Of a stretch of 64,000 nt of DNA, positions 1 through 40,056 are shown one piece after another. A program made the translations under genes and the position numbers. How positions within the stretch are numbered: position 1 is the first letter of the stretch; each line of letters opens with the position of its first letter. The notes below the pieces were generated by a model. The model did no database searches and was not told where the DNA came from. It worked only from the letters and a program-made list of their open reading frames with translations. The stretch is from an uncultured bacterium (GTDB lineage: Bacteria > Patescibacteriota > Patescibacteriia > Patescibacteriales > UBA12465): the NCBI GenBank assembly GCA_942492765.1, contig OW818634.1:281159-345158 (forward strand), in the 5' to 3' direction.

Positions 1-1811
1 GCCTTAATTCTCCTGACCCCGGCGCTGGAAGCTTCCTCCTTCTGGATAGAGAAATGGCCTAATGTTTGCGTATTTTCTACATGAGGGCCGCCACATATTT
101 CCTGAGAAAAGGCTGTTTTCAGGGCTTCTGGGGAAATATTATCCCCCTCCCCCAAACGACAGACCGTATAGACCTTAACTTTTTCTCCATATTTTGAATC
201 GAAAACTCCCATAGCTCCCCGTTTTTTCGCTTCTTCCAGGGTCAATTCTTCGCAGATGACTTTAAGGTTGTCCTGGATAGCTTCGTTCACGAGCGCCTCT
301 ACCCGACCAATTTGGTCCGGGGTCATCTTGTCTGGATGAGAAAAATCTAAACGCAAGCGTTCGGGGGTGATATTAGCGCCCTTCTGCAAGACATGATCTC
401 CGAGCACGCGTCTGAGAGCGGCCAAGAGCAGATGAGCAGCAGTGTGCAGCTTAACAGTCTCTTCGCCGGCATCGGCCAAGCCACCTTTAAATTTCCCAGC
501 CGAGGCGGTGCGGGACAAATCCTGATGCTTCTTGAGTTCAGCCTCAAAGCCAGCGCGATCGATAGTAACGCCCTTTTCCTTAGCTAACTCCTCAGTTATC
601 TCTAGCGGGAAGCCATAGCTCTGATAAAGATTGAAAGCTTCTTCTCCGCTAATGCCGTCAACAGATAATTTATTGAACTCAATCAAACCTTTTTCTAAAG
701 TCCGATTGAATTTTTCTTCTTCCTTATTCAGGTTATCGATAACAGAGGCTCTGTTATTTTCGAATTCAATATAAATACCCTTATAGCCGTTAATCGCGAT
801 AGCTGCAATATCAGCTGTCCATAATTCTTTAGAGATTCCCAATTGACGTCCATAACGGATAGCGCGCCTGATTAGGCGGCGAACGACATAACCTTGATCA
901 GTATTGGACGGAGCCACGCCCCGATTATCGCCAATAATGAAAGCCGCGGCCTTGAGATGATCGGCAATGATGCGCATCGCGCGCGTTATTTCCGGAGTTT
1001 CGCCATATTTATGACCGCTCAATTTTTCTATTTCATTGATAATATCAATAAATAGGTCGGTTCGATAATTATCATCAAAGCCGTTCATAACGGCCAGCAC
1101 TCTTTCTAGGCCCAAGCCAGTGTCCACATTTTTCTGGACTAAAGGTTCAAATTTTCCAGCAGCATTCTTATTATATTGCATGAAGACGTTATTCCAGATC
1201 TCTACCCAGGAATCATTATCATCATTGAAGCTAGCGGGAACATGAGCGGTGTCACCGGTCCAATAGAATATTTCCGTATCCGGTCCGCAAGGTCCGGTCG
1301 TGCCAGCCGGTCCCCACCAATTATTTTTTTTCGGCAATTTAGCGATGCGTTCTAGCGGCAAGCCATTAGCCTTGAATATTTCCGACCAGAGGCTATAAGC
1401 CTCTTCATCAAAAGGCGCATTTTCATCGCCCTTAAAGACAGAAACAGCCAAACGGCTCTTATCCAATCCGAGCCATTTAGCGCTCGTCAGAAACTCCCAG
1501 CTGAAATTAATGGCTTCCTTCTTAAAATAATCTCCCAGAGACCAATTTCCCATCATCTCAAAAAAAGTATGATGCGTCGCATCGCCGACTTCATCGATGT
1601 CGCCAGTGCGGATGCATTTCTGCGCGTCAGTCAGGCGCTTTCCGGCCGGATGCTTCTGGCCTAATAGATACGGCACTAAAGGATGCATGCCGGCCGTCGT
1701 GAACAGGACGGTCGGATCATTTTCCGGAATTAAAGAGGCGCTCGAAATCACGGCGTGATCTTGGCTCTTAAAAAAATCTAAATATTTTTGGCGAAGCTCT
1801 CTTGAAGTCAT
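1..1811 (-). CDS. alaS: Alanine--tRNA ligase, N-terminal ~603 codons; 3' end lies outside the window
   Basis: Not in the ORF track because it runs off the window edge. My minus-strand translation from the ATG at 1809-1811 gives MTSRELRQKYLDFFKSQDHAVISSASLIPENDPTVLFTTAGMHPLVPYLLG...HHTFFEMMGNWSLGDYFKKEAI, and at the window edge GHFSIQKEEASSAGVRRIKA. These are typical AlaRS catalytic and editing-domain signatures. Confidence 0.9.
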   Translation of the reverse strand, partial: MTSRELRQKYLDFFKSQDHAVISSASLIPENDPTVLFTTAGMHPLVPYLLGQKHPAGKRLTDAQKCIRTGDIDEVGDATHHTFFEMMGNWSLGDYFKKEAINFSWEFLTSAKWLGLDKSRLAVSVFKGDENAPFDEEAYSLWSEIFKANGLPLERIAKLPKKNNWWGPAGTTGPCGPDTEIFYWTGDTAHVPASFNDDNDSWVEIWNNVFMQYNKNAAGKFEPLVQKNVDTGLGLERVLAVMNGFDDNYRTDLFIDIINEIEKLSGHKYGETPEITRAMRIIADHLKAAAFIIGDNRGVAPSNTDQGYVVRRLIRRAIRYGRQLGISKELWTADIAAIAINGYKGIYIEFENNRASVIDNLNKEEEKFNRTLEKGLIEFNKLSVDGISGEEAFNLYQSYGFPLEITEELAKEKGVTIDRAGFEAELKKHQDLSRTASAGKFKGGLADAGEETVKLHTAAHLLLAALRRVLGDHVLQKGANITPERLRLDFSHPDKMTPDQIGRVEALVNEAIQDNLKVICEELTLEEAKKRGAMGVFDSKYGEKVKVYTVCRLGEGDNISPEALKTAFSQEICGGPHVENTQTLGHFSIQKEEASSAGVRRIK

Positions 1812-1830
1812 ATGTTTGAATTTTGCCTTC

Positions 1831-2877
1831 TTATATTATATTAACTTCCTCCTCTAAATCAAGGCCGAATTTCTTCTTGATGGCCGATTTTATCTTTTTC
1901 ACCAGCGTCGTGGCCTGGTTAGAGGTCGCGCCGCCGTAATTGACGAAAATCAGCGCCTGCTTCTCGTACATGCCGACCGAACGGAATCTCTTGCCCTTAA
2001 AGCCGGTATTCTCTATCAGCCAGCCGGCCGGAATCTTAACGCGCGTTGCTGAGACCGGAAAAGACGGCATGGCCGGATAGGTTTTCAATAATCTCTTGTA
2101 GGCAGCCGCGCTGGTTTCTATATTCTTGAAAAAAGAGCCGGCGTTAGGCAAGACGCCCGGATTCGGCAATTTACTATTTCTTATTTCCGCGATAACGGCA
2201 ATAACATCTCTCGGAGACGGATTTTCAATCCCCTGCTCTGATAATTTTTCCCGCAACGAGCCGTAATCTAATTTCAGAGATGGCTGCTTGCTTAATTTCA
2301 AAGCTACCGAGTAAATGAAGTAGCGACCTTTCAGCTTGTTCTTAAAGATGCTGTCGCGATAGCCGAAGCGGCAATCGGCCGGCTTGAAGATTTTTTCTCG
2401 TCCGGTTTTCAGATCTATCGCCGTGAGCGAATAAAACGAATCTTTCAATTCCACGCCATAAGCGCCGATATTCTGAACTGGAGCCGCCCCGACAGTGCCA
2501 TATATCAAAAACAGATTTTCCAATCCGCTCAGATTATTTTCCACGGTAAAATTTACGAAGCGTGTCCAAATTTCACCCGACTTCGCTTCGACGATAGCTG
2601 AAACAGCGTTATCCTTTTTTATTTCCATCCCCCTGATCTCATTCTTCAAGACCAAGCCTTTAACTTTCTTAGAAATCAAGATATTAGAGCCGCCTCCTAA
2701 GACCCAGATAGCCTTCTTATTCCTTTTGGCCCAGAGGATAGCTTCTTCCAGGTCTTCTCGACTCTTGATAACGGCGAAAAATTCAGCCGGAGCGCCGATC
2801 TTTAAAGTCGTATACGGAGTCAAATCTTTGTTTTTCTCGATATTTAACATATTTTTATTATAGTCGAAAAATTTCAT
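1831..2877 (-). CDS. murB: UDP-N-acetylenolpyruvoylglucosamine reductase
   Basis: 348-aa ORF. It has an FAD-binding MurB-like N-terminus (TTLKIGAPAEFFAVIKSREDLEEAILWAKRNKKAIWVLGGGSNILIS) and a MurB C-terminal region (AGWLIENTGFKGKRF). It sits beside other mur genes. Confidence 0.9.
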   Translation of the reverse strand: MKFFDYNKNMLNIEKNKDLTPYTTLKIGAPAEFFAVIKSREDLEEAILWAKRNKKAIWVLGGGSNILISKKVKGLVLKNEIRGMEIKKDNAVSAIVEAKSGEIWTRFVNFTVENNLSGLENLFLIYGTVGAAPVQNIGAYGVELKDSFYSLTAIDLKTGREKIFKPADCRFGYRDSIFKNKLKGRYFIYSVALKLSKQPSLKLDYGSLREKLSEQGIENPSPRDVIAVIAEIRNSKLPNPGVLPNAGSFFKNIETSAAAYKRLLKTYPAMPSFPVSATRVKIPAGWLIENTGFKGKRFRSVGMYEKQALIFVNYGGATSNQATTLVKKIKSAIKKKFGLDLEEEVNII

Positions 2878-2907
2878 TCAGTAAACTCTAAAAGATATTT
2901 ACATGTT

Positions 2908-2936
2908 TTGACTAATACTACAAAACATATTACAAT
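2908..2936 (+). promoter_or_regulatory. Sigma70-like promoter for the Nudix gene (TTGACT-N17-TACAAT)
   Basis: TTGACT at 2908-2913, a 17-nt spacer, and TACAAT at 2931-2936, about 27 nt upstream of the ATG at 2963. The same architecture recurs at 33175-33203. Confidence 0.5.
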
Positions 2937-2962
2937 TATTATAATTAAATATAAATATATTT

Positions 2963-3400
2963 ATGAAAATAAAAAAATTAACTTCCAAAGAATTTAAATA
3001 TATATATAGTCGAGTGCCAAGGCTGTGCGTAGAACTTATAATATGCAAAAATAAAAGTGTTCTCCTTACAAGGAGAGACATAGAGCCTTTACGCGGAAAG
3101 TGGCACATTCCCGGGGGAACGGTTCTAATGGGCGAAACACTAGAACAAGCGATTAAAAGAGTGGCTAAAAAAGAACTTGGCGTAAAAATTAATGTTAAAA
3201 AGATGCTAGGCGTTATCCAATATAATATTAAAAATTATTTCAGCCAGCCTATCGGCCTAGCATTTCTTATAGACATTATTTCTCCTAGTAACATCCGGCT
3301 AGACGAGCAGGCTAGTGAAGCTAAATTATTTAAAATTATTCCTAAAAATACCGTCAAAGAACAAAAAATATTTTTAAATAAACTATTAAATAAAAAATAG
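2963..3400 (+). CDS. Nudix hydrolase, GDP-mannose mannosyl hydrolase (NudD/WcaH)-like
   Basis: 145 aa. The Nudix box is GGTVLMGETLEQAIKRVAKKELGV. The overall pattern (P-L-C-V-E-L-I...LL..R...P..GKWHIPGG) resembles sugar-nucleotide Nudix enzymes of the Gmm type. Confidence 0.8.
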   Translation: MKIKKLTSKEFKYIYSRVPRLCVELIICKNKSVLLTRRDIEPLRGKWHIPGGTVLMGETLEQAIKRVAKKELGVKINVKKMLGVIQYNIKNYFSQPIGLAFLIDIISPSNIRLDEQASEAKLFKIIPKNTVKEQKIFLNKLLNKK

Positions 3401-3435
3401 AGCAGTTAATCATTTTGAATAACTGCTCTTTTTTG
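3401..3435. terminator. Bidirectional intrinsic terminator between convergent Nudix and radical SAM genes
   Basis: Stem agcagtta (3401-3408) pairs with taactgct (3420-3427) across an 11-nt loop. A T-tract (cttttttg) follows on the plus strand and an A-run (3392-3400) precedes it, giving a T-tract on the minus strand. Confidence 0.6.
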
Positions 3436-3449
3436 TTTGTCCACACTAG

Positions 3450-4943
3450 CTAGATTCTCACTGCATAATACGGGTTAAACTTTTTTACATAATGCTTCAC
3501 GAATTTTGAAGATAAGTTTTTTGATGTTTCTTCGATTTTTTTTGATAACGCCTCTTGTTTAGTTACGGAATTAAAATCTTCTTCGGAAAACGAATTGATT
3601 TCATTTACTATACCGACATAATAATCGGAAATATTTGTGTCTAAATAGTTCAAATAGCAATCAAGATGTTTTATAACTTTCAGCAGAAATACCTTAAAAT
3701 CACTATCAAAATCTAATATAGACTTCGACGAATAAGTCAGATGCCTTTGCCCTCGGTTCTTTGATAGCACCCCTAATTTTTTACATAAAGAGTGAATTGG
3801 GGTCCCTTCGTATGGGTAGAAAGTCGCAACGCGCACAACATCTGGATTTAATCGAGCGTTTAGCTGTAGAGTTTCTAGAACATTTGCCTTCGTTTCGGTT
3901 GGTAATCCAATCATATTAAACGTGAATAATCTTATTCCGTATTTTTTGATAATTTCAGATTTTTCGACGAAGCTTTGATTGGTCGCCGCGCGGCTCAAGA
4001 TATTCTTCCTTATATTGTAATTACCGGACTCAACGCCAATTCTTATTAAATCACAGCCACAACTCTTCAGGGTGGCAACTTTTTCATCAGTAATGGAATC
4101 AACATGAGCATTAACTATAAAAGGTAAACCGATCTCTTTCTTGAATAATTCTATGAATTCAAGAATAGAGGAAGATAATAGAAAATCATCATCAAAAAAA
4201 TTTACAGCCTTAACATTATTATACTTAAACAAAATACCCTTTATTCCTTCTATAGTCTTATAAAAATCGCCGATTCTCATATATTTTCCTGATCGCTTAC
4301 ACACATTCCTGTAGATATCCTTATACGAGCCGTTAAAACAATAGGTGCATCTCCTTGGGCAACCCCTCGATAATATTAAATCGACCCATCCATTCCTAAG
4401 GTCAATTATTCTCTGATAATCCATAACTTCAACATCAATAAAGGGTAATTTTTCTAAAGATATATACGGCCTTAGGTCATTTTTTATAATTTGACCATTC
4501 TTCTTAAGCCATAAATTCTTTATTTTACTAATATCCCTATTATCTTGCATCCTTTCTACTAATTCCAAAAGAGCCTGTTCGCCTTCTCCCAAGACAATCA
4601 TATCAACGCATTTAAATCCAATAACTTCAGATGGCTTCAGCGTCACATGTATGCCTCCAAATATTATAGGGATTCTGCTATTCACGTCCCTTTTTATAAA
4701 TTTTGCAATCTCTATAGCTACGGGAAATTGATTTGTTGTTGCGGAGAATCCAATAATATCCGGCCGATAATCGTTAACAGCCGTCTTTATCCTTTCTAAA
4801 TCAAGAGGAAAACCTATTGATTCATTTAAATATACCAGCTTAGTTTCGTGCGATTTGGTTTTAAGAACGGCAGAAAGAGTAGCGATGCCTATACAGGGGG
4901 ACGGGTCCCACCCCAAATTAGGAAATATAAATAGTATTTTCAT
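3450..4943 (-). CDS. Cobalamin-binding (class B) radical SAM enzyme
   Basis: 497 aa. The N-terminal B12-binding-like domain reads DIIGFSATTNQFPVAIEIAKFIK...IPIIFGGIHVTLKPSEV...VDMIVLGEGEQALLELVE. It is followed by the radical SAM cluster motif CPRRCTYC (CxxxCxxC). An SD-like aaagga lies upstream of the ATG. Confidence 0.85.
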   Translation of the reverse strand: MKILFIFPNLGWDPSPCIGIATLSAVLKTKSHETKLVYLNESIGFPLDLERIKTAVNDYRPDIIGFSATTNQFPVAIEIAKFIKRDVNSRIPIIFGGIHVTLKPSEVIGFKCVDMIVLGEGEQALLELVERMQDNRDISKIKNLWLKKNGQIIKNDLRPYISLEKLPFIDVEVMDYQRIIDLRNGWVDLILSRGCPRRCTYCFNGSYKDIYRNVCKRSGKYMRIGDFYKTIEGIKGILFKYNNVKAVNFFDDDFLLSSSILEFIELFKKEIGLPFIVNAHVDSITDEKVATLKSCGCDLIRIGVESGNYNIRKNILSRAATNQSFVEKSEIIKKYGIRLFTFNMIGLPTETKANVLETLQLNARLNPDVVRVATFYPYEGTPIHSLCKKLGVLSKNRGQRHLTYSSKSILDFDSDFKVFLLKVIKHLDCYLNYLDTNISDYYVGIVNEINSFSEEDFNSVTKQEALSKKIEETSKNLSSKFVKHYVKKFNPYYAVRI

Positions 4944-4969
4944 GATATCGGATCCTTTCTTTAATTGGT

Positions 4970-5986
4970 TTATGAATCTAATTTTATTTTACCTAGTTGT
5001 TCGTAGAATCGTTCAGTTTCTTGTTTTAATGGACGCCACCATGTTTCATTCTGTTGGTACCAGAATATGGTTTCTGCGAGCATGTCAACAAATTTATACT
5101 CGGGATTCCAACCCAAGTCTCGGTTAATTTTACTGCAATCAATAAAATATTGGCTATCATGACCAGGTCGATCAGAAACAAATTCTATATAATCCTGGGT
5201 TTTATTCATAATCTTCAAAATCATTTTTACCAATGTTAAATTATTGATTTCTTCAGCGGAACTGCCAACGTAATAAGTTTCTCCGATATTATTCGCAATT
5301 AAAACCGCTTCGATTGCCCTACAATTATCTTCTACATATAACCAATCCCTAATCTGATTACCGCTCCCGTAGATAGGAGCCCTCCTATTATCAATAAGAT
5401 TGGTAATTACACGAGGAATAAATTTTTCTGGATGTTGATATGGGCCGTAATTATTCGAACATTTTGTGATTGTTATCGGCAAACCAAACGATTGATAAAA
5501 ATATTTGACTAAATAGTCTGAGGCCATTTTACTAGCCATATAAGGATTAGAAAAACAGTGCTCTCCGTCCTTATCATCTCTTTTTATCAAATCTAAAGTA
5601 GAGACATGATGGAATCTTTTAACCCCGTATTTTAATGCTGCTTCAAGTAAATTACTTGTTCCAACTACGTTTGTTTGCGTAAACACGCCCGGATTAACTA
5701 AGGAACGATCGATATGCGTTTCGGCTGCGAAGTTTACAATGCAGTCTGGTTTATTGTTTTTGATAATTCTATCAACAAATGCAAAATCGCTAATATTACC
5801 TCTAATAAACTGATAATCAAGGATGCTTTCTATATCTTTTAAGCTATTAGCATTACCAGCATAAGTTAATTTATCAAAATTTATAACCTTGCACTGTTTA
5901 TGATTTTTCAACCAAAAACGTATAAAATTAGACCCCATAAACCCCGATCCCCCGGTAATCATTAGTGTCGAGAATATTTCTTTCAT
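4970..5986 (-). CDS. NDP-sugar 4,6-dehydratase family (RmlB-like) SDR paralog with non-canonical active-site motif
   Basis: 338 aa. Features: GGSGFMGSNF Rossmann motif, FDKLTYAGNANSLKD, YMASK (YxxxK), IRDWLYVEDNCRAI, and RPGHDSQYFIDCSKINRDLGW. The family-conserved STDE motif reads STLD here. A strong SD (aaaggag) is present. Confidence 0.8.
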   Translation of the reverse strand: MKEIFSTLMITGGSGFMGSNFIRFWLKNHKQCKVINFDKLTYAGNANSLKDIESILDYQFIRGNISDFAFVDRIIKNNKPDCIVNFAAETHIDRSLVNPGVFTQTNVVGTSNLLEAALKYGVKRFHHVSTLDLIKRDDKDGEHCFSNPYMASKMASDYLVKYFYQSFGLPITITKCSNNYGPYQHPEKFIPRVITNLIDNRRAPIYGSGNQIRDWLYVEDNCRAIEAVLIANNIGETYYVGSSAEEINNLTLVKMILKIMNKTQDYIEFVSDRPGHDSQYFIDCSKINRDLGWNPEYKFVDMLAETIFWYQQNETWWRPLKQETERFYEQLGKIKLDS

Positions 5987-6039
5987 AGTTATACTCCTTT
6001 CAATTTTTAAAGTTCAACAATATAAAGCAATAACTAATT

Positions 6040-6068
6040 AGTTTACATATATTTATCTTTTGTGTCAA
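6040..6068 (-). promoter_or_regulatory. Sigma70-like promoter for the RmlB-like/radical SAM operon (TTGACA-N17-TAAACT)
   Basis: The minus strand reads TTGACA (6068-6063), a 17-nt spacer, and TAAACT (6045-6040), about 55 nt upstream of the ATG at 5986. The -35 lies in the outer end of the left arm of the 6064-6130 inverted repeat. Confidence 0.5.
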
Positions 6069-6130
6069 TATTTTTTATTACAAAAAGACAGGGTGTCCAG
6101 CTCTGTCTTTTTGTAATAAAAAATATTGAC
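6064..6130. terminator. 28-bp perfect inverted repeat (hairpin, 11-nt loop); probable terminator of the mur/ABC operon
   Basis: gtcaatattttttattacaaaaagacag (6064-6091) is the exact reverse complement of ctgtctttttgtaataaaaaatattgac (6103-6130). The right arm abuts the ABC transporter stop codon (6130-6132). The inner part has the A-tract/stem/T-tract form of a bidirectional terminator. Confidence 0.6.
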
Positions 6131-7920
6131 TAATCAACCTCTCCCATCGCTTGCAGCTTCAAGAGCTTGGCGTATAGGCCGCCCTGAGCTGAGGCTAGCT
6201 CCTTGTGGCTGCCCTGCTCAGCCACCTTTCCACCTTCGAGGACGACGATATTATCGGCCTGTTTGATTGTGCTTAAGCGATGGGCGATGATTATCATGGT
6301 CCGGTTCTGACTGATCTTCTTCATCGCATCTTGAATCAGCACTTCGCTCTGGCTATCAAGATTGGAAGTCGCTTCATCAAATATTAAGACGCGTGGATTG
6401 GCTAAGATAGCCCGAGCGATGCCGAGGCGCTGGCGCTGCCCGCCGGATAATTTTATGCCTCTCTCTCCGGTCATCGTGTCATAACCCTTGTCGAGCTTAT
6501 TGATAAACTCGTCAGCATTGGCAATTTTCGCCGCCGCGACTATCTCAGCGCGCGTCGCTTCGGGCCGCGCGTAGGCAATATTTTCCGCCACAGTCAGATC
6601 GAAAATTTCCACTTCTTGCGGCACGATCGCTAAGAATTTCCTAAAACTCTGCAAGTCATAATCGCGCAGATCCTTCCCGTCTAACAAAACGCGGCCTTTC
6701 TGAGGATCATAATGACGATAAGCTAAACGGGCGATAGTCGTCTTGCCGCCGCCGGAAGGGCCGACGAGCGCCGTGACGCTGCCTGGCTGAATCGTAAAAT
6801 TAAGGTCGCTGACGGCAGCGCGCTTATTAACATTATAATAGAAAGAGGCGTTATCAAAACTGATTTCGCCTTTGATATCTTGCGGCTTAAAGCCGTCCGG
6901 CGAGCTGACTATCTCGCTCTCTTCATTAAATAAGGCGATTAAGCGGCTGACGCCCTCACGGCCCTCTTCCATCCGGTCATAGAAACGTGACAAGCGATAC
7001 AAGGAAGCGTAAGCTTTCTCGCTGAGTGTGAAAACGAAGATCAGAGAGCCGACTGTCATGAGTTCTTTATAGACCAGATAAACGCCGAGAAAGAGTACAG
7101 CTGAACGACCGATATCGACGATGAAATTACGCCCTAAGCCGATCTTCATCATCCAGCCATATTGCTTGTTCTCATTATCGCGAATATTCTCTTTGACGCG
7201 CCCGAAGCCTTTCAATTCATTCTCTTCCTGCACGAAAGACTGAACGGCATTAATATTGATTATCGCCTGCCCCATCTTGCCCGACGCGATCTCATAATCG
7301 CGGAAGATGGCCTTCCTAATCGGGTACATCCGCTTATTCTGCCAATAGGTGATGAAGATGAACAGCGGTGCAAAAATCAAAAAAGACAGGCCGATGCGCC
7401 AATCGGACCAGAACAAGGCGACGAGAGTGAAGACGAGCTGGAAGACGGTCGGCAGCACTTCCCAGCAGATATTATTCAAAAATTCGGAAATCTTATCGAC
7501 GCCTTTCTCGATCTTGATTATCTTGGATCCGGTATTCTGGCGCTCATGATAACCGAGGCTGAGCGAGACTAATTTCTCTTGCGCCTTCATGCCCAAAAAA
7601 TATTCAACCTTCACCAGTAATTTCAAGATCCGGCGGTCGCTCAAGTATTGAATATAAGAACGGACCTCGTCGGTCACGAGATAGAGAGCGATCAATTTCA
7701 AGAGGAAAAAGAACTGGTCCTTAGAAAAATTATCCAGGCCATCAATGACTAATTTCAAGATATACGGCTTTCCCAAATCTAAGATAGCTGCCGCCAAGAT
7801 TATGACCGTGATAACTCCGAACAATTTCCTGAAAGACGCTAATAAGCGCCATAATTCCGGCCAGAAGCGTTTCCAGGATATGCTATCTTTTTCAGTTTTC
7901 TTTCCCTCCTCTTGATTCAT
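6130..7920 (-). CDS. ABC exporter, fused permease/ATPase (MsbA/ABCB type)
   Basis: 596 aa. It has six predicted N-terminal TM helices, Walker A GPSGGGKTT, ABC signature LSGGQRQR, and Walker B LIFDEATS. Confidence 0.9.
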   Translation of the reverse strand: MNQEEGKKTEKDSISWKRFWPELWRLLASFRKLFGVITVIILAAAILDLGKPYILKLVIDGLDNFSKDQFFFLLKLIALYLVTDEVRSYIQYLSDRRILKLLVKVEYFLGMKAQEKLVSLSLGYHERQNTGSKIIKIEKGVDKISEFLNNICWEVLPTVFQLVFTLVALFWSDWRIGLSFLIFAPLFIFITYWQNKRMYPIRKAIFRDYEIASGKMGQAIININAVQSFVQEENELKGFGRVKENIRDNENKQYGWMMKIGLGRNFIVDIGRSAVLFLGVYLVYKELMTVGSLIFVFTLSEKAYASLYRLSRFYDRMEEGREGVSRLIALFNEESEIVSSPDGFKPQDIKGEISFDNASFYYNVNKRAAVSDLNFTIQPGSVTALVGPSGGGKTTIARLAYRHYDPQKGRVLLDGKDLRDYDLQSFRKFLAIVPQEVEIFDLTVAENIAYARPEATRAEIVAAAKIANADEFINKLDKGYDTMTGERGIKLSGGQRQRLGIARAILANPRVLIFDEATSNLDSQSEVLIQDAMKKISQNRTMIIIAHRLSTIKQADNIVVLEGGKVAEQGSHKELASAQGGLYAKLLKLQAMGEVD

Positions 7921-7942
7921 AAGCAGGAATAGTACAATATTT

Positions 7943-9430
7943 TTACGATTTTAACAAGTCTTTCCCGATTCTAAAGACATCGCCAGCCCCCATCAGCAAT
8001 AAGACATCCTTGGCCGACAAATGCCGGCGCAGATAGGCTGTCGCCTCTGCCATGGAGCCTAAATGCCTGACTGGCTGGGCTATCTTCCGAGTTTTGTTGA
8101 ATTTAGAGACGGCGCTGGCGAACTGGCGGCTGGACACCCCGCCCTGTTTCTCTCTAGCTGAGCCATAGATATCCAAGATCACTAACTCATCAGCGGCGGT
8201 AAAGCTCTTAGAGAAATCCTTAAAAAACGCTTTCGTGCGAGTAAAAGTATGGGGGTGGAAAACAGTGATAATTTTCTTATCCTGATAATGCGCGCGCAAT
8301 CCGGATAAAGTCGCGGCTATTTCCGTCGGATGATGGGCATAATCGTCGATGATCAGGGCGCCGTGATATTTTCCCAAAAGCTGAGCGCGGCGCTCGGTGC
8401 CGGAAAAAGAAGCTAGGCCGCTCCTAATCTTTTCTAAAGGCACTTTTAATTCGCGGCTGGCAGCGATGACGGCGAGTGCATTCAAGACATTATGCTCACC
8501 CCAGAGGCGGATCTTGAATTCTCCCAAGCCGGAGACCGCTTCGAGGCGCATATTTTTCTTCAGGCTGACAGCGCGATAAGCGAGCTTGAATATCTGATAG
8601 CCATTCTTCAGCCGCAAATCATAAGCTAAATAGTCTGATTTATTTCCAATAGCCTCCTCGGCTTCGACAAAAGTCTCAGCTCGCGGCGCTAAATCATAAG
8701 AAGATATCCGGCCGCGGCAGTTTTTCCTGATCCTCTGGCTCGCTTGATCGCGGCCGCTTATAACCAAGAAGCCTGCAGCCGGAATCTTCTTGATGAAATC
8801 AGCGAAAACTTTGATATAAGCCGCTTCAGTCTTAAAATAATCCGGATGATCATAATCAATATTATTAAGGACGACGCCAGCCGGCTTAAAATACTGCAAT
8901 TTATTCTGATACTCATCGACTTCCGCGATCAAATTATCGGACGCGCCCTTTAAGCCGCTGCCCCCGAACTGCGGCACGCGCGAACCGACCAGCACGTTCG
9001 GCTTCTCACCCGCTTTCATCAGGACATAGCCGAGCCAGGCCGAGGTCGTCGTCTTGCCATGGCTGCCGCAGACAGCGACGCCGTGATACTCATTAAAGAC
9101 CTGGCCCAAGGCCTCAGCATAAGACAAAATCGGAATACCCTTAAAAAGCGGCTGATGCTTCTTGATATAAGCCATCTCCGGATTATTCTTCTCGTTGAAA
9201 GCGGAGGAATAGATAATGACGTCAGGACGAGTAGGCAGATTCTTCTCCGAAAACGGCGACAGGATCTTTATCCTCTCTTTCTTCAGGACTTTATCAGTCA
9301 TGAAGGAGTCACTAATATCAGAGCCGAGAATATGATGGCCGTGCGCCGCCAAAAATTGCGCCAGCATGGTCATGCCGACGCCCTTGATGCCGATAAGATA
9401 GAAATTCTTTTTTGCTTTAGTTTTTTTCAT
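7943..9430 (-). CDS. murC: UDP-N-acetylmuramate--L-alanine ligase
   Basis: 495 aa with YLIGIKGVGMTMLAQFLAAHGHHILGSD and the Mur ligase P-loop GSHGKTTTSAW. It lies in a mur/dcw-type context. Confidence 0.9.
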   Translation of the reverse strand: MKKTKAKKNFYLIGIKGVGMTMLAQFLAAHGHHILGSDISDSFMTDKVLKKERIKILSPFSEKNLPTRPDVIIYSSAFNEKNNPEMAYIKKHQPLFKGIPILSYAEALGQVFNEYHGVAVCGSHGKTTTSAWLGYVLMKAGEKPNVLVGSRVPQFGGSGLKGASDNLIAEVDEYQNKLQYFKPAGVVLNNIDYDHPDYFKTEAAYIKVFADFIKKIPAAGFLVISGRDQASQRIRKNCRGRISSYDLAPRAETFVEAEEAIGNKSDYLAYDLRLKNGYQIFKLAYRAVSLKKNMRLEAVSGLGEFKIRLWGEHNVLNALAVIAASRELKVPLEKIRSGLASFSGTERRAQLLGKYHGALIIDDYAHHPTEIAATLSGLRAHYQDKKIITVFHPHTFTRTKAFFKDFSKSFTAADELVILDIYGSAREKQGGVSSRQFASAVSKFNKTRKIAQPVRHLGSMAEATAYLRRHLSAKDVLLLMGAGDVFRIGKDLLKS

Positions 9431-12800: not shown

Positions 12801-13214
12801 TTATCTAAAATTAATCAAATAAATAAACATCAGAGCCAAGCTGATAAACATCAGGAAGAGCTCGGCGGCCGTTAATAAGATATTGGCGAACAACCGAAAA
12901 TACTGGCGGCGATGCAAGACTGCGGCCATGATCCAATTAAAAGCTAAGATGCCTAAGCCGTAAAGGGGATATAAGAATATGTGCCAAGGCGCGCCGACCA
13001 GATCGATGCCAAAATCTATATTATAATGCAGCACCAGCAGCTCTCCGCTCAGATGCTTATAGATGAAAACGGCCTGCAGCCAGGCGAGGATTTGGAACAA
13101 GCCAGCTAGCCCTAAATAGAAGCGGCTGGGCACAAAACGCCAAAGCGCCGCCAAGGCAACCCTTATTTCTTGACAAAAAGAGTAAAAACGGACGTAAAGA
13201 TTAGAATAAACCAT
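12801..13214 (-). CDS. Hypothetical ~4-TM membrane protein at the head of the mraY operon
   Basis: 137-aa ORF, hydrophobic and aromatic-rich, ending 8 nt upstream of the mraY start. I recognise no family. Confidence 0.45.
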   Translation of the reverse strand: MVYSNLYVRFYSFCQEIRVALAALWRFVPSRFYLGLAGLFQILAWLQAVFIYKHLSGELLVLHYNIDFGIDLVGAPWHIFLYPLYGLGILAFNWIMAAVLHRRQYFRLFANILLTAAELFLMFISLALMFIYLINFR

Positions 13215-13295
13215 AAAAAAATAAGAGAATAATCTATTTATTTTCAGTTTATCACATTTTAAAATAATACAAAACTATGTTATAATTAAGATATT

Positions 13296-14306
13296 ATGAG
13301 CCAAAAAATTATCACTAAAATATTCAATTACGCCGCTAGCGAAGGGGCCGACAACCTGGTCATCGCCAGGCGAGCCGACCAGCTTGTTCTAGACTACTAC
13401 TTCTCTGGACAAGACAAACAGAGCCTGATCTTGCCTAAGAAGCTAGAGAAGGAATTATTCTCCAGCCTGAGAAAAATATTAGCCGTCGCTCCCGGAGAAT
13501 TCATCGCTAAAAAATACTGCAAGCTTCCTCATAAATCCGGCTGCCTTAATTTCTATCTGACTATCATGCCGGAAGCGAACGGAGAAAAGATAATCATCAA
13601 TCTCATCACTAAGCCATTCACTCTCTGGCGCCTCAACAGGCTCGGATTGCAGAAAGCAGAGCTCCAGGAGATCAAGAAATCTCTTAATCTTAAGTCGGGG
13701 CTAGTGATTATCAGCTCTCCTGAGGGCGAAGGCAAGAGCGCCACCCTGAACTCCCTACTCCTCGAGCTGAATGACCCCTCTAAGAGCGTCTATTCCCTCC
13801 AAGGGCGAGAAGCTTACGAAGTCCCTGGCGTCGTAGCGCTCCCTCCGAGCGAAACTAATTGGGATAAGCTGCTGCGCTTAGATTCTGAGATAATCTTCAC
13901 TGATAGCCTAGACGAGTCTCGTTCGCTAGAACACGCGATTCGAGCGGCCGCTAGCGGCCGCCTAGTCTTCGGCACTATGACTGCGGCTGATTCCTTCGAA
14001 GCCTTGCGTAAAGTTCTGGCAGCTGAACCGCCCTTGAAATTAAAGCTGGATAACCTTAAGATGATCGTAAGCCAGCGCTTAGTCGGAATGAAGCGAAAGC
14101 CAGGAAAAACTAGCCGTGACCGGCGCAAGGAGATCGGCTTATTCGAAGTCCTCCGCATTACTCCAGCTATAAAGACGCTGCTGCTTAAGAAGCTCGAAAA
14201 AAAATCAGACGACCGCTATCAGGAATTGGAAAAAATAGCCTTAAAGGACGGCTTCCGTCCGCTCGCTCACGACCGCCTTAAGAAAAAGAAAGAAGGATTG
14301 ATATGA
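13296..14306 (+). CDS. GspE/PilB (type II secretion/type IV pilus ATPase) family protein with eroded catalytic motifs
   Basis: 336 aa. The N-terminal region resembles the GspE N2 domain (ADNLVIARRADQLVLDYYFSG...). The Walker A is partly kept (SPEGEGKSAT). The Asp box, Walker B and His box are replaced: QGREAY, IIFTDSLDES, and GRLVFGTMTAAD in place of the GHLVxSTLHTND type. Confidence 0.6.
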   Translation: MSQKIITKIFNYAASEGADNLVIARRADQLVLDYYFSGQDKQSLILPKKLEKELFSSLRKILAVAPGEFIAKKYCKLPHKSGCLNFYLTIMPEANGEKIIINLITKPFTLWRLNRLGLQKAELQEIKKSLNLKSGLVIISSPEGEGKSATLNSLLLELNDPSKSVYSLQGREAYEVPGVVALPPSETNWDKLLRLDSEIIFTDSLDESRSLEHAIRAAASGRLVFGTMTAADSFEALRKVLAAEPPLKLKLDNLKMIVSQRLVGMKRKPGKTSRDRRKEIGLFEVLRITPAIKTLLLKKLEKKSDDRYQELEKIALKDGFRPLAHDRLKKKKEGLI

Positions 14307-21900: not shown

Positions 21901-22914
21901 TTATTTAGTGGCGAGGATGCTGCGTTTATAAGAATCCAAATTATCTAAAGCGATACCCGTGCCCTTGGCGACGCAAAGCATGGCGTCGTCAGCGACATAA
22001 GCGGAAACACCGGTAGTCCGAGCGATTAATTGATCGATATTGCGGAGCAAGGAGCTGCCACCGGTAAGCACTATGCCCTTATCCATGATATCGGCCGATA
22101 ATTCCGGCGGAGTCTTCTGCAGCACTTTCTTAGCGGCAGCGATTATCGCCTCTAGCTCGTTCTGGATAGCTTCAGTCACATCATCGCTCGAGACAGTCAG
22201 ACTGCGCGGCAGGCCGGTCACGATATCGCGTCCGCGTATCTCCAGATAAAGCTTATCCTCCATATATAAGGCCGAGCCGATATTGATCTTTATTTCTTCA
22301 GCTGTACGCTCGCCGATAGCCAGGTTATATTTCTTGCGAATATATTCCAGGATAGCAGCATCGAACTTATTGCCGCCGACGCGCACAGAAGTCGAAGCGA
22401 CGATTCCGCCCAAAGAAATGACGGCCATTTCCGCGGTTCCGCCGCCGATATCGATAACCATGTGCCCAGTAGCTGAGCCGATGGGTATGTCAGCGCCGAT
22501 AGCCGCCGCCACCGGTTCCTTGATGATATAGGCCGCTTTAGCGCCAGCCGCGATAGTCGCTTCAATGACCGCGCGGCGCTCAGTAGACGAAATGCCCGCC
22601 GGGACGGCGACCATGACTTCCGGACGGAATAAGCGGATGCCCCCTAAGGTCTTATTGATGAAATAGCGTATCATCGCTTCGGTCGCCCGATAATCAGCGA
22701 TGACTCCGTCCTTCAAAGGACGCACGGCCATAATAGTATCCGGGGTGCGGCCGATCATATCCTTAGCCTCGTTGCCGACAGCCAGGATCTTCTTGTCATG
22801 GATAGAGACTGCCACCACGCTCGGCTCATTAATAACAATGCCGCGCTTAGGCAGATGGATTAGAGTATAGGTTGTACCAAGATCGATTCCGATCCTTTTA
22901 ATAAACATACGCAA
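21901..22914 (-). CDS. mreB: Actin-like rod-shape protein MreB (paralog 1, not next to mreCD)
   Basis: 337 aa with IGIDLGTTYTL, VIDIGGGTAEMAVISLGG and VLTGGSSLLRNIDQLI actin-fold motifs. Confidence 0.9.
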   Translation of the reverse strand: MRMFIKRIGIDLGTTYTLIHLPKRGIVINEPSVVAVSIHDKKILAVGNEAKDMIGRTPDTIMAVRPLKDGVIADYRATEAMIRYFINKTLGGIRLFRPEVMVAVPAGISSTERRAVIEATIAAGAKAAYIIKEPVAAAIGADIPIGSATGHMVIDIGGGTAEMAVISLGGIVASTSVRVGGNKFDAAILEYIRKKYNLAIGERTAEEIKINIGSALYMEDKLYLEIRGRDIVTGLPRSLTVSSDDVTEAIQNELEAIIAAAKKVLQKTPPELSADIMDKGIVLTGGSSLLRNIDQLIARTTGVSAYVADDAMLCVAKGTGIALDNLDSYKRSILATK

Positions 22915-22986: not shown

Positions 22987-23430
22987 TTATTCTTCATAAT
23001 CACGATCGACGCTCTTCTCGCTGGCCGCGACTATCCGTTTGACTTTCTCGGCGAATTCAAAAGTATCGAATTCTTCCTTGAAGAAAACATAATCAGCGCC
23101 GAGCTGCAGGCTGCGCTGACGGCTGTCCTCGTCGCTCAGATCGGTAAAGATGAAGATCTGCTTATCATTGAGCTCATCGTCGGACTTCAATTTCTTAATG
23201 ATCTCGAAGCCGTCAACCTTGGGAAGAATGAGATCAAGAATAATATAATCCGGCTCGAAATCCCGAAGCTTATTGAATAATTCTTCCATCTCTTCGTCGC
23301 CAGTCGCGGTTTCCACCTCGAACTCATCAGCGGAAAACTGAGATTCTAGCCCGTAAAGAAGATTAGCGTCGTCTTCGATGATAAAGATTTTCTTGTTTTC
23401 CATATTTTTGATTATTTTAATTTCTTCCAC
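22987..23430 (-). CDS. Stand-alone response regulator receiver domain (CheY-like)
   Basis: Motifs are KIFIIEDD, the phospho-acceptor context DYIILDLILPKVDG, and the conserved Lys region (GADYVFFK). The track start at 23430 is GTG and overlaps the rfbB stop. The ATG at 23403 (MENKKIFIIEDD) is an equally plausible start. Confidence 0.8.
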   Translation of the reverse strand: MEEIKIIKNMENKKIFIIEDDANLLYGLESQFSADEFEVETATGDEEMEELFNKLRDFEPDYIILDLILPKVDGFEIIKKLKSDDELNDKQIFIFTDLSDEDSRQRSLQLGADYVFFKEEFDTFEFAEKVKRIVAASEKSVDRDYEE

Positions 23431-24374
23431 CAGGATTCATTAGCTTTATACCATTCTAGCGTAGCGCGCAAGCCCTCCTCGAAAGATTGGAGCGGCTCCC
23501 AGCCTAATTCCGCCCGCGCTTTGGAAAAATCAATCGCGTATCTCAAATCGTGGCCGAGACGATCGGGCACATATTCGATCATCTCTTCACCGCGACCCAT
23601 CAGGCTAAGTATCAGCTTGGTTATTTCCATGTTAGTCTTCTCGTTGCCGCCTCCTAGGCAATAAGTCTCGCCGATGCGGCCATGTTTAATGATCATATCG
23701 ACGCCGCGGTTATGGTCATCGACATGAATCCAGTCGCGGACATTCGCGCCCGCGCCATAAACCGGAACCTTCTTCCCTTCCATCAGGTTAGTGATAAAGA
23801 GCGGAATCAGCTTTTCTGGATATTGATAAGGTCCGTAATTATTGGAGCAATTAGAAATAGTGATCGGCAGCTTATAAGTATGGTAATAAGCGCGGACCAG
23901 ATGATCCGAACCAGCCTTAGAAGCGCTATAAGGAGAGCGCGGATCATAAGGAGTCTTCTCATTAAATTTCGGCGCGCCGAAATCCAAGGCGCCGAAAACC
24001 TCATCGGTCGAGATATGATGGAAGCGGATATGGCCGTTGTTCTTCGCCGCTTCCAATAAGGTCCGCGTCCCTTCGACATTAGTACGGATAAAGTCAGCGC
24101 TATTCTTGATAGAGCGATCGACGTGGCTCTCGGCCGCAAAATGAACAATGACATCTATTCCCTGCACCAGATCATTAACCAGCGCCGCATCGCAGATATC
24201 GCCTTTGACGAACTTATAGTTAGGATTATTCTCCACATCCTTAAGATTATCCAGATTGCCGGCATAAGTAAGCGCATCCAGATTGATAAGGCTGTCTTCC
24301 GGATATTCCTTCAGCCAATAGCGTATGAAGTTGGAGCCGATGAAGCCGGCGCCGCCGGTAACGAGTAATTTCAT
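23412..24374 (-). CDS. rfbB: dTDP-glucose 4,6-dehydratase (canonical)
   Basis: 320 aa with TGGAGFIGSNF, LDALTYAGNLDNLKD, the canonical HHISTDEVFG, YSASK, VRDWIHVDDH and RLGHDLRYAID. Confidence 0.9.
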   Translation of the reverse strand: MKLLVTGGAGFIGSNFIRYWLKEYPEDSLINLDALTYAGNLDNLKDVENNPNYKFVKGDICDAALVNDLVQGIDVIVHFAAESHVDRSIKNSADFIRTNVEGTRTLLEAAKNNGHIRFHHISTDEVFGALDFGAPKFNEKTPYDPRSPYSASKAGSDHLVRAYYHTYKLPITISNCSNNYGPYQYPEKLIPLFITNLMEGKKVPVYGAGANVRDWIHVDDHNRGVDMIIKHGRIGETYCLGGGNEKTNMEITKLILSLMGRGEEMIEYVPDRLGHDLRYAIDFSKARAELGWEPLQSFEEGLRATLEWYKANESWWKKLK

Positions 24375-24772
24375 ATTTTGGATAATAATTTATTCAAGAT
24401 TTCTTCAGCCTCGCCATATGCATATGGATGCTGCGGCCACTGCACATGGCCATCGCCCGCGTGGCGCGGAATGACATGGAAATGAATATGGGGGACGTTC
24501 TGCCCGGCCACCGGATCATTGTTAGTCGTAACATTATAGCCGAGAACTCCCAGCCTATCTTTCAATAAGCGGCCGATCTTCTTAACTGCTAAGATTATGG
24601 CGCACAAGTCATCTTCGCTCGCTTCTTCGATATTCTGATAATGCTTCTTGCTTAACACCAGGGTATGGCCCGCGTTGACAGGTTTGGCATCCAAAAAAGC
24701 AAAGATGCGATCATCTTCGTAAACCTTGGCGCAAGGAATCTCATTATTGATTATCTGGCAAAAAACGCACAT
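24371..24772 (-). CDS. HIT family (Hint-type) protein
   Basis: 133 aa with CVFCQII at the N-terminus and the histidine triad HIHFHVIPR. It has an ATGA overlap with rfbB. Confidence 0.85.
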   Translation of the reverse strand: MCVFCQIINNEIPCAKVYEDDRIFAFLDAKPVNAGHTLVLSKKHYQNIEEASEDDLCAIILAVKKIGRLLKDRLGVLGYNVTTNNDPVAGQNVPHIHFHVIPRHAGDGHVQWPQHPYAYGEAEEILNKLLSKI

Positions 24773-24773
24773 A

Positions 24774-25226
24774 TTATTTTATCTTATAAGGACTATCCTC
24801 TTTAGCTTCCCATCTGATCTCATCAATTTCTTCCTTCTTACCCTCTCCTTTATACAATTTATCAGGCAAGTTGATGCTCAAGGCCGCGATATCGGAAATG
24901 CATTTATAGCCATGGACGACGCCTGGCGGCACGATGACGAGGGTCGGATTGTCTTCTCCGACTTCAAGCTCTAAGGATTCGCCCTCGGTCTTCGAATCGC
25001 CGCGACGATCCCAAAGATAAAGGCGGAAAGCGCCCGGACCGAGGAACACGAAGCAGTCGCTTTGATGGACGTGTTCATGCGGGCCGCGGATGATTCCCGG
25101 CTTAGTCAGGCTGACATAGGCCATGGACATATCGAAAGCTAGCTCGTCGCGGCGGAATATCTCTGCCAGCCAGCCGCGGTTATCTTCGTATTTCTCTATC
25201 TTCTTGATGATGACTCCATTGATCAT
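24774..25226 (-). CDS. dTDP-4-dehydrorhamnose 3,5-epimerase-like cupin (short RmlC family)
   Basis: 150 aa with YEDNRGWLAEIFR and IIRGPHEH...DCFVFLGPGAFRLYLWD, which resemble the RmlC/WxcM cupin fold. It is shorter than classical RmlC. Confidence 0.65.
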   Translation of the reverse strand: MINGVIIKKIEKYEDNRGWLAEIFRRDELAFDMSMAYVSLTKPGIIRGPHEHVHQSDCFVFLGPGAFRLYLWDRRGDSKTEGESLELEVGEDNPTLVIVPPGVVHGYKCISDIAALSINLPDKLYKGEGKKEEIDEIRWEAKEDSPYKIK

Positions 25227-33117: not shown

Positions 33118-33174
33118 ATATATTAGCCAATTTTTATATTATAAGTATAATCTAAATTCTCATTTTTTGGAATA

Positions 33175-33203
33175 TTGACTAAATCAAAATTAAATGATAC
33201 AAT
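33175..33203 (+). promoter_or_regulatory. Sigma70-like promoter (TTGACT-N17-TACAAT)
   Basis: TTGACT at 33175-33180, a 17-nt spacer, and TACAAT at 33198-33203, about 55 nt upstream of the ATG at 33258. Confidence 0.5.
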
Positions 33204-33257
33204 TTTTTCCATCAAATAGTAGTACGTTTCAAATATCGTCTAACTAAAATATCTCCC

Positions 33258-33791: not shown

Positions 33792-33824
33792 CTCCCATCG
33801 GGCGACGTAGTATCAAAAAACACG

Positions 33825-33851
33825 AAAGGCTTCTTTAAAGAAGCCTTTTTT
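33825..33851 (+). terminator. Intrinsic terminator
   Basis: The perfect palindrome aaaggcttcttt/aaagaagccttt (33825-33848) runs into a T-tract ending at 33851. Confidence 0.6.
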
Positions 33852-33856
33852 AATTA

Positions 33857-33885
33857 TTGACTAAAATAAAATATCATTATAATAT
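33857..33885 (+). promoter_or_regulatory. Candidate sigma70-like promoter (TTGACT ... TATAAT/TAATAT)
   Basis: TTGACT at 33857-33862. TATAAT at 33878-33883 gives a 15-nt spacer, or TAATAT at 33880-33885 gives a 17-nt spacer. It is upstream of the ATG at 33941. Confidence 0.4.
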
Positions 33886-33940
33886 ATTAAGTCAACCACA
33901 GATCTTTAAAAAACAAAATGTCTAACCTAAAATACACCCC

Positions 33941-39400: not shown

Positions 39401-39410
39401 ATAAACTTAA

Positions 39411-40055: not shown

Positions 40056-40056
40056 A

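Follow-up and report, generated by a model that had tools for sequence, protein, structure and literature searches.

A low-GC, horizontally acquired gene cassette next to murB in a Patescibacteria genome, with a likely role in nucleotide-sugar or glycan tailoring

Why should three AT-rich genes with promoters of their own stand next to the cell-wall genes of a Patescibacteria genome, and what do their products do? The question is raised by a 64-kb stretch of contig OW818634.1, from an uncultured member of the Patescibacteriota. We refer to the whole 64 kb as the window, and coordinates of the cassette are counted within it. Directly after murB, a segment of about 3.25 kb encodes a Nudix hydrolase, a radical S-adenosylmethionine (SAM) enzyme with a B12-binding domain (rSAM) and a short-chain dehydrogenase/reductase (SDR) derived from RmlB. 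An original prediction, made from the sequence alone, took these genes for a self-contained module, acquired horizontally, that makes a deoxysugar nucleotide, for example a C-methylated one, for the cell envelope. Our analysis strengthens the case for acquisition and makes a nucleotide-sugar or glycan role likely; it counts against self-containment. Judged by sequence comparison, an uncharacterised rSAM clade and a clade of RmlB-like proteins without the Asp-Glu dyad come together here in a horizontally transferred nucleotide-sugar or glycan tailoring cassette. Its predicted features are as follows.

2801 to 6140, no strand: low-GC genomic island (cassette plus regulatory ends), delimited by likelihood change-point, G+C and tetranucleotides
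2908 to 2936, plus strand: sigma-70-type promoter of the Nudix gene, TTGACT-17-TACAAT, 10 of 12 consensus positions
2963 to 3400, plus strand: Nudix hydrolase, 145 aa (PF00293, 46 bits)
3394 to 3434, no strand: bidirectional intrinsic terminator at the convergent Nudix/rSAM junction, 19-nt arms with A and T runs either side
3450 to 4943, minus strand: class B (B12-binding domain) rSAM, 497 aa (PF02310 and PF04055)
4970 to 5986, minus strand: RmlB-derived extended SDR, 338 aa, in an operon with the rSAM gene (TIGR01181, 404.9 bits)
5987 to 6039, minus strand: 5' leader with ribosome-binding site TTAAAAAnTGAAAGGA, containing conserved blocks
6040 to 6068, minus strand: sigma-70-type promoter of the SDR-rSAM operon, TTGACA-17-TAAACT, 10 of 12 consensus positions
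6064 to 6091 and 6103 to 6130, no strand: perfect inverted repeat, two 28-nt arms around an 11-nt loop, at the right boundary of the cassette

The compositional contrast is strong. Positions 2878 to 6129 contain 33.1% G+C, compared to 47.8% in the remainder of the window, and have the lowest G+C of all 3.25-kb segments in the 64 kb (mean 47.0%, standard deviation 3.3) as well as the largest tetranucleotide distance (0.52; median 0.17, standard deviation 0.065). A two-state likelihood change-point fit places the island at 2801–6140 (32.8% versus 47.6% G+C). G+C at third codon positions (GC3) is 0.29–0.33 in the three cassette genes, which are the only real genes in the open reading frame (ORF) list for the island, and 0.55–0.61 in murB, the neighbouring ATP-binding cassette (ABC) exporter gene, murC, murG and the host RmlB gene. 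These sliding-window statistics over the 64 kb bear out the AT-richness first described for 2880–6130. The figure of about 60% G+C then given for a line of murC was too high; murC measures about 45–53%.

Relatives of the rSAM at 45% identity or more are rare, with thirteen among 5.8 billion clusters, and the named ones belong to Patescibacteria or Woesearchaeota. Two loci, L005 and L012 (rSAM 69% and 68% identical), carry the SDR-rSAM pair and the convergent Nudix gene between the gene for a 510-aa secreted protein (hyp510) and clpB, with a haloacid dehalogenase (HAD)-type phosphatase gene added in L012. The trio recurs between an SPP-family gene and a DUF2207 gene in L032, L034 and L035 (rSAM 73%). 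Loci of Candidatus Falkowbacteria (L001–L004, L008 and L013; rSAM 64%) have the rSAM gene and a convergent Nudix gene, without the SDR, between secD and secA. The Nudix protein is 64–70% identical to those of other cassettes, and the identities of rSAM, Nudix and SDR co-vary between copies, indicating that the three genes travel together. The cassette has 31–37% G+C in hosts of 44–49% G+C. The compositional deviation is confined to it in L005, L012 and L001 as well, and a low-GC island is seen in two of the three other chromosomal contexts; the L032 host, at 36% G+C, shows no contrast, which fits a low-GC donor pool. L001 has a SecA 60% identical to that of the window and shares the secA-S30AE-M50 synteny, and the window has no cassette beside secA. 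Related genomes thus carry the cassette at different sites. Its occurrence at other chromosomal sites in relatives marks it as a transferable module, and horizontal acquisition, as first proposed, is well supported by these four chromosomal contexts. No relatives of the rSAM were found in viral contigs (IMG/VR) or GenBank phages, and that search gave no evidence for phage carriage. An anti-phage defence system was rejected as a candidate: PADLOC gives only a generic Nudix match (PDC-S07), and none for the rSAM or the SDR.

From the composition of these copies, the rSAM and Nudix genes form the conserved, mobile core of the cassette, with the SDR as an optional, RmlB-derived accessory. Since the Falkowbacteria cassette does without it, the SDR cannot be essential to the core reaction. 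Its place in L001 (8945–9745) is taken by a low-GC gene whose 266-aa product combines a signal peptide with several transmembrane helices; it matched neither Pfam nor PADLOC models and does not resemble the other rSAM neighbours.

The cassette also appears to be equipped for its own expression. A promoter and the Nudix gene lead in from the left, and a promoter and the SDR-rSAM operon from the right; transcription from these two inward-facing promoters, both predicted sites, converges on the bidirectional terminator between them. Promoter matches alone carry little weight in AT-rich DNA, and we take these as meaningful because they are conserved between copies. The Nudix promoter, TTGACT-17-TAnAAT, is common to the window, L005 and L012 (alignment A6). 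The SDR promoter is likewise kept in four copies from three chromosomal contexts, with its TTGACA unchanged in all and its spacer (17 nt) and TAnAnT box conserved. Blocks of the leader, ending in TTAAAAAnTGAAAGGA, are invariant in the window, L005, L012 and L032 (alignment A5), despite saturation of synonymous sites among these copies. The hairpin at the Nudix/rSAM junction has a folding free energy (ΔG) of −19.5 kcal/mol on the plus strand and −17.2 kcal/mol on the minus strand (z −6.7 and −5.0), and hairpins of differing sequence occupy the equivalent junction in L005, L012 and L001. The perfect 28-nt inverted repeat (ΔG −35.4, z −9.6, matched by 0 shuffles) abuts the stop codon of the ABC exporter gene (6130–6132), and its inner arm supplies the TTGAC of the cassette −35 box. 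We rejected it as a repeated or mobile element: it occurs once in the window and in none of the other loci examined, and we read it as a local terminator rather than an insertion signature. Probably it terminates the ABC exporter gene and insulates the cassette promoter. The original prediction had placed both promoters, the shared terminator and the right-hand hairpin, and all of them hold up. An Rfam scan of 1500–8200 gave one sub-threshold chance match and no riboswitch, including no cobalamin or SAM element.

All three genes are under purifying selection. L005 versus L012 is the sole unsaturated comparison usable for the ratio of nonsynonymous to synonymous substitution rates (dN/dS), with values of 0.158 (rSAM), 0.131 (Nudix) and 0.118 (SDR). 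Decay is seen in one lineage only, in which L032 and L035 have TGA at the invariant Trp186 codon of the rSAM and L034 has a frameshift near residue 147; the rSAM is thus dispensable in some lineages. The TGA of L032 (11022–12518) and L035 is either a nonsense mutation or a UGA read as Trp. In the sister sample L034 (10492–11989), the frameshift is independent and Trp186 is intact.

What kind of enzyme is the rSAM? It matches PF02310 with 67.4 bits (cut-off 32.1) and PF04055 with 79.7 bits (cut-off 29.5), and the cysteines of its CPRRCTYC motif (C195, C199 and C202) are invariant in 46 relatives, in keeping with the class B assignment first made. An AlphaFold2 (AF2) model, with a predicted local distance difference test (pLDDT) score of 94.9, has the full class B architecture and is about equidistant from TsrM, MgmA, OxsB, CysS, TokK and AprD4 (13–17% identity, template modelling (TM) scores of 0.6–0.7). 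The solved protein with the best-scoring sequence is AprD4 (E 5e-11 by single sequence, 87.8 bits by profile), and its profile match is limited to rSAM positions 220–400, the C-terminal half of the barrel. AprD4 is itself an example of a B12-like domain that need not bind cobalamin. The N-terminal domain of the cassette rSAM resembles genuine cobalamin binders, not AprD4; in profile searches it matches the cobalamin domains of OxsB, TokK, TsrM and CysS. Sequence and model together place the rSAM in class B, in an uncharacterised clade with a predicted cobalamin domain.

An indication of substrate comes from more distant relatives. At 37–53% identity, rSAM relatives lie in glycosyltransferase family 2 (GT2)/rml glycan clusters in five of six loci. 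Their neighbours are YdjC, three GT2 genes, rmlA/B/C/D-like genes and a second B12 rSAM in L006; a 1083-aa GT2, a sulfotransferase-like gene, RmlB, RmlD and Wzm/Wzt in L014; GT2 genes, a GT9-domain/radical SAM fusion gene and many rSAM genes in L007; and GT2, methyltransferase, PMT_2, rmlA/B/C/D, DegT and MsbA-type exporter genes in L038. A GT2 gene is convergent with the rSAM gene in L037. Short unknown proteins beside the rSAM in L001, L006, L007, L009 and L014 showed no mutual homology, and hence give no sign of a hidden fourth partner. As a separate observation, side-by-side rSAM arrays with glycosyltransferases occur in three activated-sludge contigs (L022, L023 and L025, with four or five B12-type paralogues each), in L038 (three B12-type genes and a SPASM rSAM) and in L007 (about ten rSAM genes, one of them B12-type). 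These arrays look like uncharacterised, heavily radical-tailored glycan pathways.

The SDR passes the RmlB whole-protein threshold (TIGR01181, 404.9 bits; cut-off 365.1) and is about 50% identical to solved RmlBs such as B. anthracis RmlB (6BI4). The RmlB fingerprint, [ST]DExnYx3K, supplies Asp as acid and Glu as base (PMC8987622 Table 1). Here the cassette protein departs from RmlB: its motif is VSTLD instead of VSTDE, and the Asp-Glu couple after the catalytic Thr is replaced (T-L-D). In alignment A2, cassette SDRs read STLD, STLN and STLN, compared to STDEV(Y/F)G in the host and other RmlBs, and the three aligned proteins (window, L005 and L012) have a 7-residue deletion in common after the motif. 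The NAD site and the Thr/Tyr/Lys triad are retained, with GGSGFMG, T130 and Y149-x3-K153 invariant, as are the NNYGPxQxPEK and RDW/HD..Y blocks of true RmlBs, likewise invariant in the cassette SDRs. This clade has at least eight members, seven with T-L-[D/N/S] and an eighth (P0245) with S-I-A; DE is retained in 111 of the 120 best SDR relatives, the host RmlB included. The atypical RmlB paralog of the original prediction, with STDE changed to STLD, is therefore confirmed as a sequence, and loss of the couple means that it should not be filed as a 4,6-dehydratase. Its residual fingerprint, [ST]xnYx3K, is that of a predicted GalE-type, redox-only nucleoside diphosphate (NDP)-sugar SDR. Given the lost couple and the retained Thr/Tyr/Lys, we infer C4 oxidoreduction without dehydration. 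Another variant occurs in L036 (8445–9500), where the RmlB-like gene downstream of a Nudix gene reads S-T-I-E-V-Y-G, with Asp lost and Glu kept. It passes the RmlB cut-off (379 versus 365 bits), resembles the T-C-E of the TunA 5,6-dehydratase and is apparently the sole RmlB-type gene of that cluster.

The third protein belongs to the Nudix superfamily by fold and score (PF00293, 46 bits; cut-off 21.1), PF00293 and PF14815 being its only Pfam matches. Its AF2 model (pLDDT 92) matches Nudix structures, and these generic, fold-level matches do not discriminate between families. An EvaA-type Nudix-fold NDP-hexose 2,3-dehydratase was considered and rejected, as those are two-domain proteins of about 470 aa and this is a single 145-aa domain. 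The nearest relative is E. coli Gmm by single sequence, profile, NCBIfam and PDB (PDB E 6e-8). On the Gmm model, NF011963, the protein scores 49.2 bits against a cut-off of 146, so the resemblance to GDP-mannose mannosyl hydrolase proposed at first survives as kinship and not as family membership. The catalytic residues of E. coli Gmm are Arg37, Arg52, Arg65, Glu70 and His124, the last being the general base; the equivalents of Arg37, Arg65 and Glu70 are invariant in the Nudix subfamily (R38, R66 and E71). The Nudix box is G-x5-E-x7-R-V-A-K-K-E-L-G-V here and R-V-A-x-E-E-L-G in the subfamily consensus. By sequence, the protein falls into a subfamily of Patescibacteria Nudix proteins that are distant relatives of Gmm. 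This subfamily is widespread in Patescibacteria and commoner than the rSAM clade. Outside cassettes, three of its contexts were sampled, and in two of them it adjoins 4,6-dehydratase genes. One is the Falkowbacteria rml cluster of L036 (FdtA-HIT-Nudix-RmlB-like SDR-RmlD-RmlA-GT2), where the Nudix gene is translationally coupled to the HIT gene and directly upstream of the RmlB-like gene; in L039–L044 it stands within a DegT-FdtA-PglF-like...Wzz locus.

The genes around the cassette belong to cell-wall and envelope functions.

6130 to 7920, minus strand: MsbA-type ABC exporter gene, 596 aa (permease and ATPase), of normal GC, between cassette and murC
7943 to 9430: murC, above its curated cut-off
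23412 to 25226, minus strand: host rml-type locus outside the island, with FdtA/RmlC-like (24774–25226), HIT (24371–24772) and canonical RmlB (23412–24374) genes

murB scores 380 bits on NF000755; murC, ftsW and mraY pass curated cut-offs, and MurG is the top match for its gene, with a score slightly under the cut-off. The cassette does follow murB, as originally stated, but it does not by itself split the mur cluster, since the ABC exporter gene also stands before murC. A similar exporter is present in the distant glycan cluster L038 (33% identity over 510 residues), and the exporter of the window, of MsbA/HlyB type, could be a host glycolipid or glycan flippase. At the other edge, the island overlaps the 5' end of murB, as annotated, by about 75 nt (2801–2877). 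Inside this overlap, the first 60 nt of the ORF, which encodes 348 aa, have 20% G+C; MurB models start aligning at residue 12 or 19 of the product; and this exact product has no database record, whereas all three cassette proteins do. The genuine murB start, or the murB promoter, may have been replaced by island DNA. Weaker low-GC patches (37–39% G+C) lie at about 13050–13500, 33000–34000 and 39000–40000. The last is just downstream of secA, the position of the cassette in the Falkowbacteria relative, and contains a class I methyltransferase gene (39411–40160).

The host RmlB is canonical (TIGR01181, 489.7 bits; motif STDEVFG; 48% G+C), lies 17 kb from the cassette and is 46% identical to the cassette SDR. 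Its FdtA-HIT-RmlB locus is syntenic with L036 (FdtA 64%, HIT 59% identity) and has no Nudix gene, whereas L036 has one between HIT and the RmlB-like gene. This host locus is the likely source of dTDP-sugar substrates. Elsewhere in the window are two MreB paralogues and MreC (21901–22914, 26831–27634 and 27636–28676, minus strand) and, at 14–22 kb, three GT4 genes, one GT2 gene and a subtilase with FG-GAP repeats, which suggests an envelope-biogenesis neighbourhood in a very small genome, the contig measuring 895,742 bp.

How might the three proteins work together? It seems to us a little better than an even bet that in its Patescibacteria-type host the cassette, acquired and autonomously expressed, modifies a nucleotide-activated sugar or a glycan made from such a sugar. 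A sugar or glycan role is likely because rSAM relatives sit in GT2/rml clusters and the Nudix subfamily beside 4,6-dehydratase genes. In such a scheme, the host would make dTDP-glucose and then, by its own RmlB, dTDP-4-keto-6-deoxyglucose. The cassette SDR would bind NAD and a dTDP-hexose and carry out redox chemistry at C4, as an epimerase or ketoreductase does, with no 4,6-dehydration, and the rSAM would abstract hydrogen from an unactivated sugar carbon. Our first choice for the outcome would be cobalamin-dependent C-methylation, as with GenK and GenD1. The second would be a radical dehydration like that of AprD4, after which the SDR would reduce the keto product, as AprD3 does; this scheme would explain why a dehydratase lost its acid/base pair and kept its redox triad. 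The Nudix protein would hydrolyse an NDP-sugar for pool control, clearance of off-pathway material or release of the modified sugar. We regard as possible, though doubtful, the more specific proposal of an undescribed radical route on dTDP-hexoses, in which the rSAM performs C-methylation or deoxygenation (giving, e.g., 3-deoxy or 3,6-dideoxy sugars), the RmlB descendant serves as a redox-only C4 partner, and the whole acts as a mobile surface-glycan plug-in of Patescibacteria that uses host precursors. In the literature searched, that on Patescibacteria included, we found no description of a B12-type rSAM combined with a Nudix and with an RmlB-like gene or nucleotide sugar, in line with the original view that no characterised pathway is known to have exactly this trio.

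Several observations weigh against the tailoring of a nucleotide-activated sugar or its glycan. The curated NCBIfam class B families tested on the rSAM (HpnJ, PhpK, BchE, MgmA, AprD4, HpnR, KedN5 and BzaD) all fall short of their cut-offs, the nearest being HpnJ (116 versus 578); other scores are 110 versus 600 for PhpK, 94 versus 481 for BchE, 73 versus 360 for MgmA and 41 versus 500 for NF033070 (AprD4). Because no curated family fits, we leave the reaction type uncalled. The C-methylated product remains a guess. Among the six rSAM relatives at 37–53% identity, the one in L009 is the exception, with no sugar-gene neighbours. Patescibacteria are not known to make cobalamin, which bears on cofactor supply. 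In the Nudix protein of the window, Lys replaces one Nudix-box Glu; Arg52 of Gmm corresponds to an invariant Thr53, and His124 aligns with Ala. A 70%-identical Nudix gene in L033 is solitary, beside ligA and without rSAM or SDR genes, showing that the Nudix-rSAM link is not obligate, and the Nudix gene may move independently of the rSAM gene. (Positions 10001–12500 of L033 form a low-GC patch of their own, about 33% versus 48%, with two unknown ORFs of 208 and 215 aa.) Genes for a nucleotidyltransferase, a glycosyltransferase or a flippase are missing from the cassette, which hence must draw on host genes and is not the self-contained module first imagined; neither rmlA nor rmlD was detected in the 64 kb. 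The absence of the SDR from the Falkowbacteria version and the interrupted rSAM genes of L032, L034 and L035 belong here too. What persists of deoxysugar-nucleotide tailoring for the envelope is the sugar theme.

Unlikely, in our estimate, but the strongest of the rivals is a different rSAM substrate, either a polymer or a lipid-linked sugar made by a GT2-type polyprenyl-phosphate glycosyltransferase, with the SDR and Nudix only adjusting precursor supply. Distant relatives do pair rSAM and GT2 genes closely: they stand 2 nt apart in L007 and 13 nt apart in L038, the GT2 gene of L037 is convergent, and in L006 a GT2 gene follows the rSAM-rSAM2 pair. HpnJ, the best NCBIfam match, acts on a lipid-linked sugar, and the Falkowbacteria cassette dispenses with the SDR and has the 266-aa membrane protein instead. 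The cassette itself, however, contains no glycosyltransferase, two of its three proteins are soluble, nucleotide-sugar-binding types, and the HpnJ score is far below its cut-off (116 versus 578).

An improbable alternative is that the product is a small bioactive molecule comparable to oxetanocin or tunicamycin, either a modified nucleoside or a nucleoside sugar of high carbon number, with the Nudix trimming phosphates and the SDR preparing or reducing an intermediate. One of the best structural matches to the rSAM, at about 16% identity, is OxsB, a class B enzyme that has deoxyadenosine phosphates as substrates and a phosphohydrolase as partner. Tunicamycin biosynthesis combines a nucleotide-sugar SDR with an altered acid (TunA, T-C-E), the radical SAM enzyme TunB and small pyrophosphatases, but TunB is a 338-aa non-B12 enzyme, and the Glu base needed for TunA-type chemistry is missing in most cassette SDRs. 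The added HAD-type phosphatase gene in L012 and the mobile, dispensable nature of the cassette would suit such a product. No acyltransferase, glycosyltransferase or immunity gene accompanies the trio, PADLOC shows the generic Nudix match alone, and rSAM relatives are found in glycan, not natural-product, clusters.

It is very improbable that the cassette is a decaying remnant, functionless in the window genome, whose RmlB copy is inactivated, whose Nudix box is damaged and whose rSAM is on its way to being lost. The loss of the dehydratase couple, the K at the Nudix-box Glu position and the broken rSAM genes of L032, L034 and L035 might be read in this way. All three ORFs of the window are nonetheless intact; dN/dS is 0.12–0.16; CxxxCxxC, GG, Thr/Tyr/Lys and the NAD-binding motifs are retained; promoter, leader and terminator are kept across copies with saturated synonymous sites; and the dyad-less SDR clade has at least eight diverged, intact members. 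Least probable of all is vertical inheritance, with the cassette an ancestral part of the cell-wall cluster that is AT-rich through local bias in mutation or expression. Its support (no integrase, tRNA, transposase or flanking direct repeats found, and an old divergence between copies with saturated synonymous sites) is met by four different chromosomal contexts, a syntenic relative with the cassette at another site, a GC3 gap of 0.25–0.3 limited exactly to the cassette in three host backgrounds, and no contrast in the 36% G+C host.

Among known systems, GenK/GenD1, AprD4/AprD3 and the tunicamycin set are the closest analogies to this acquired, probably sugar-tailoring cassette, none of them a family match. 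GenK and GenD1 C-methylate unactivated sugar-ring carbons in gentamicin biosynthesis, and the radical SAM 1,2-diol dehydratase AprD4 partners the NADPH-dependent reductase AprD3 in the C3' deoxygenation of apramycin (PMC5461906). Like the cassette rSAM, GenK and GenD1 combine an N-terminal B12-binding domain with a CxxxCxxC radical SAM barrel. They show no detectable family-level sequence relationship to it, act on aminoglycoside pseudo-oligosaccharides instead of NDP-sugars, and belong to actinomycete antibiotic clusters without a Nudix or RmlB-like partner, not to a mobile island of the candidate phyla radiation. AprD4/AprD3 share the logic of an rSAM with a B12-like N-terminus acting on a sugar beside a reductase that handles a 4-keto group, but AprD3, unlike the cassette SDR, is not RmlB-derived. 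The SDR is like RmlB in score, NAD site, Thr/Tyr/Lys and conserved blocks, and differs in the Asp/Glu couple and the 7-residue deletion after it in the three aligned cassette SDRs. The Nudix protein shares with Gmm/NudD/WcaH a degenerate box, with R-hydrophobic for RE and, in the window copy, a single Glu of EE, and its subfamily is also tied to nucleotide-sugar loci; these hold dTDP-type (rml) rather than GDP-mannose genes. The likeness to the tunicamycin core is one of logic only: an NDP-sugar SDR with a changed acid, a radical SAM enzyme on a sugar, and pyrophosphatases (TunN/TunH). TunB has no B12 domain, TunA keeps its Glu base (T-C-E), and the tun cluster needs acyltransferase, glycosyltransferase, deacetylase and immunity genes, of which the cassette has none.

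Uncharacterised rSAM genes in glycan loci are common. The cassette is small and encodes three soluble proteins, which makes it workable for in vitro reconstitution. If the proposed role is true, NDP-sugars or envelope glycans would be a new context for class B rSAM enzymes, as opposed to antibiotics, lipids and peptides, and the SDR would be a clean natural case of an RmlB dehydratase re-purposed through loss of its acid/base couple. It would also mean that compact glycan-tailoring cassettes with promoters of their own pass between Patescibacteria, ultra-small and host-dependent organisms for which surface glycans are probably central to episymbiont host attachment and phage evasion.

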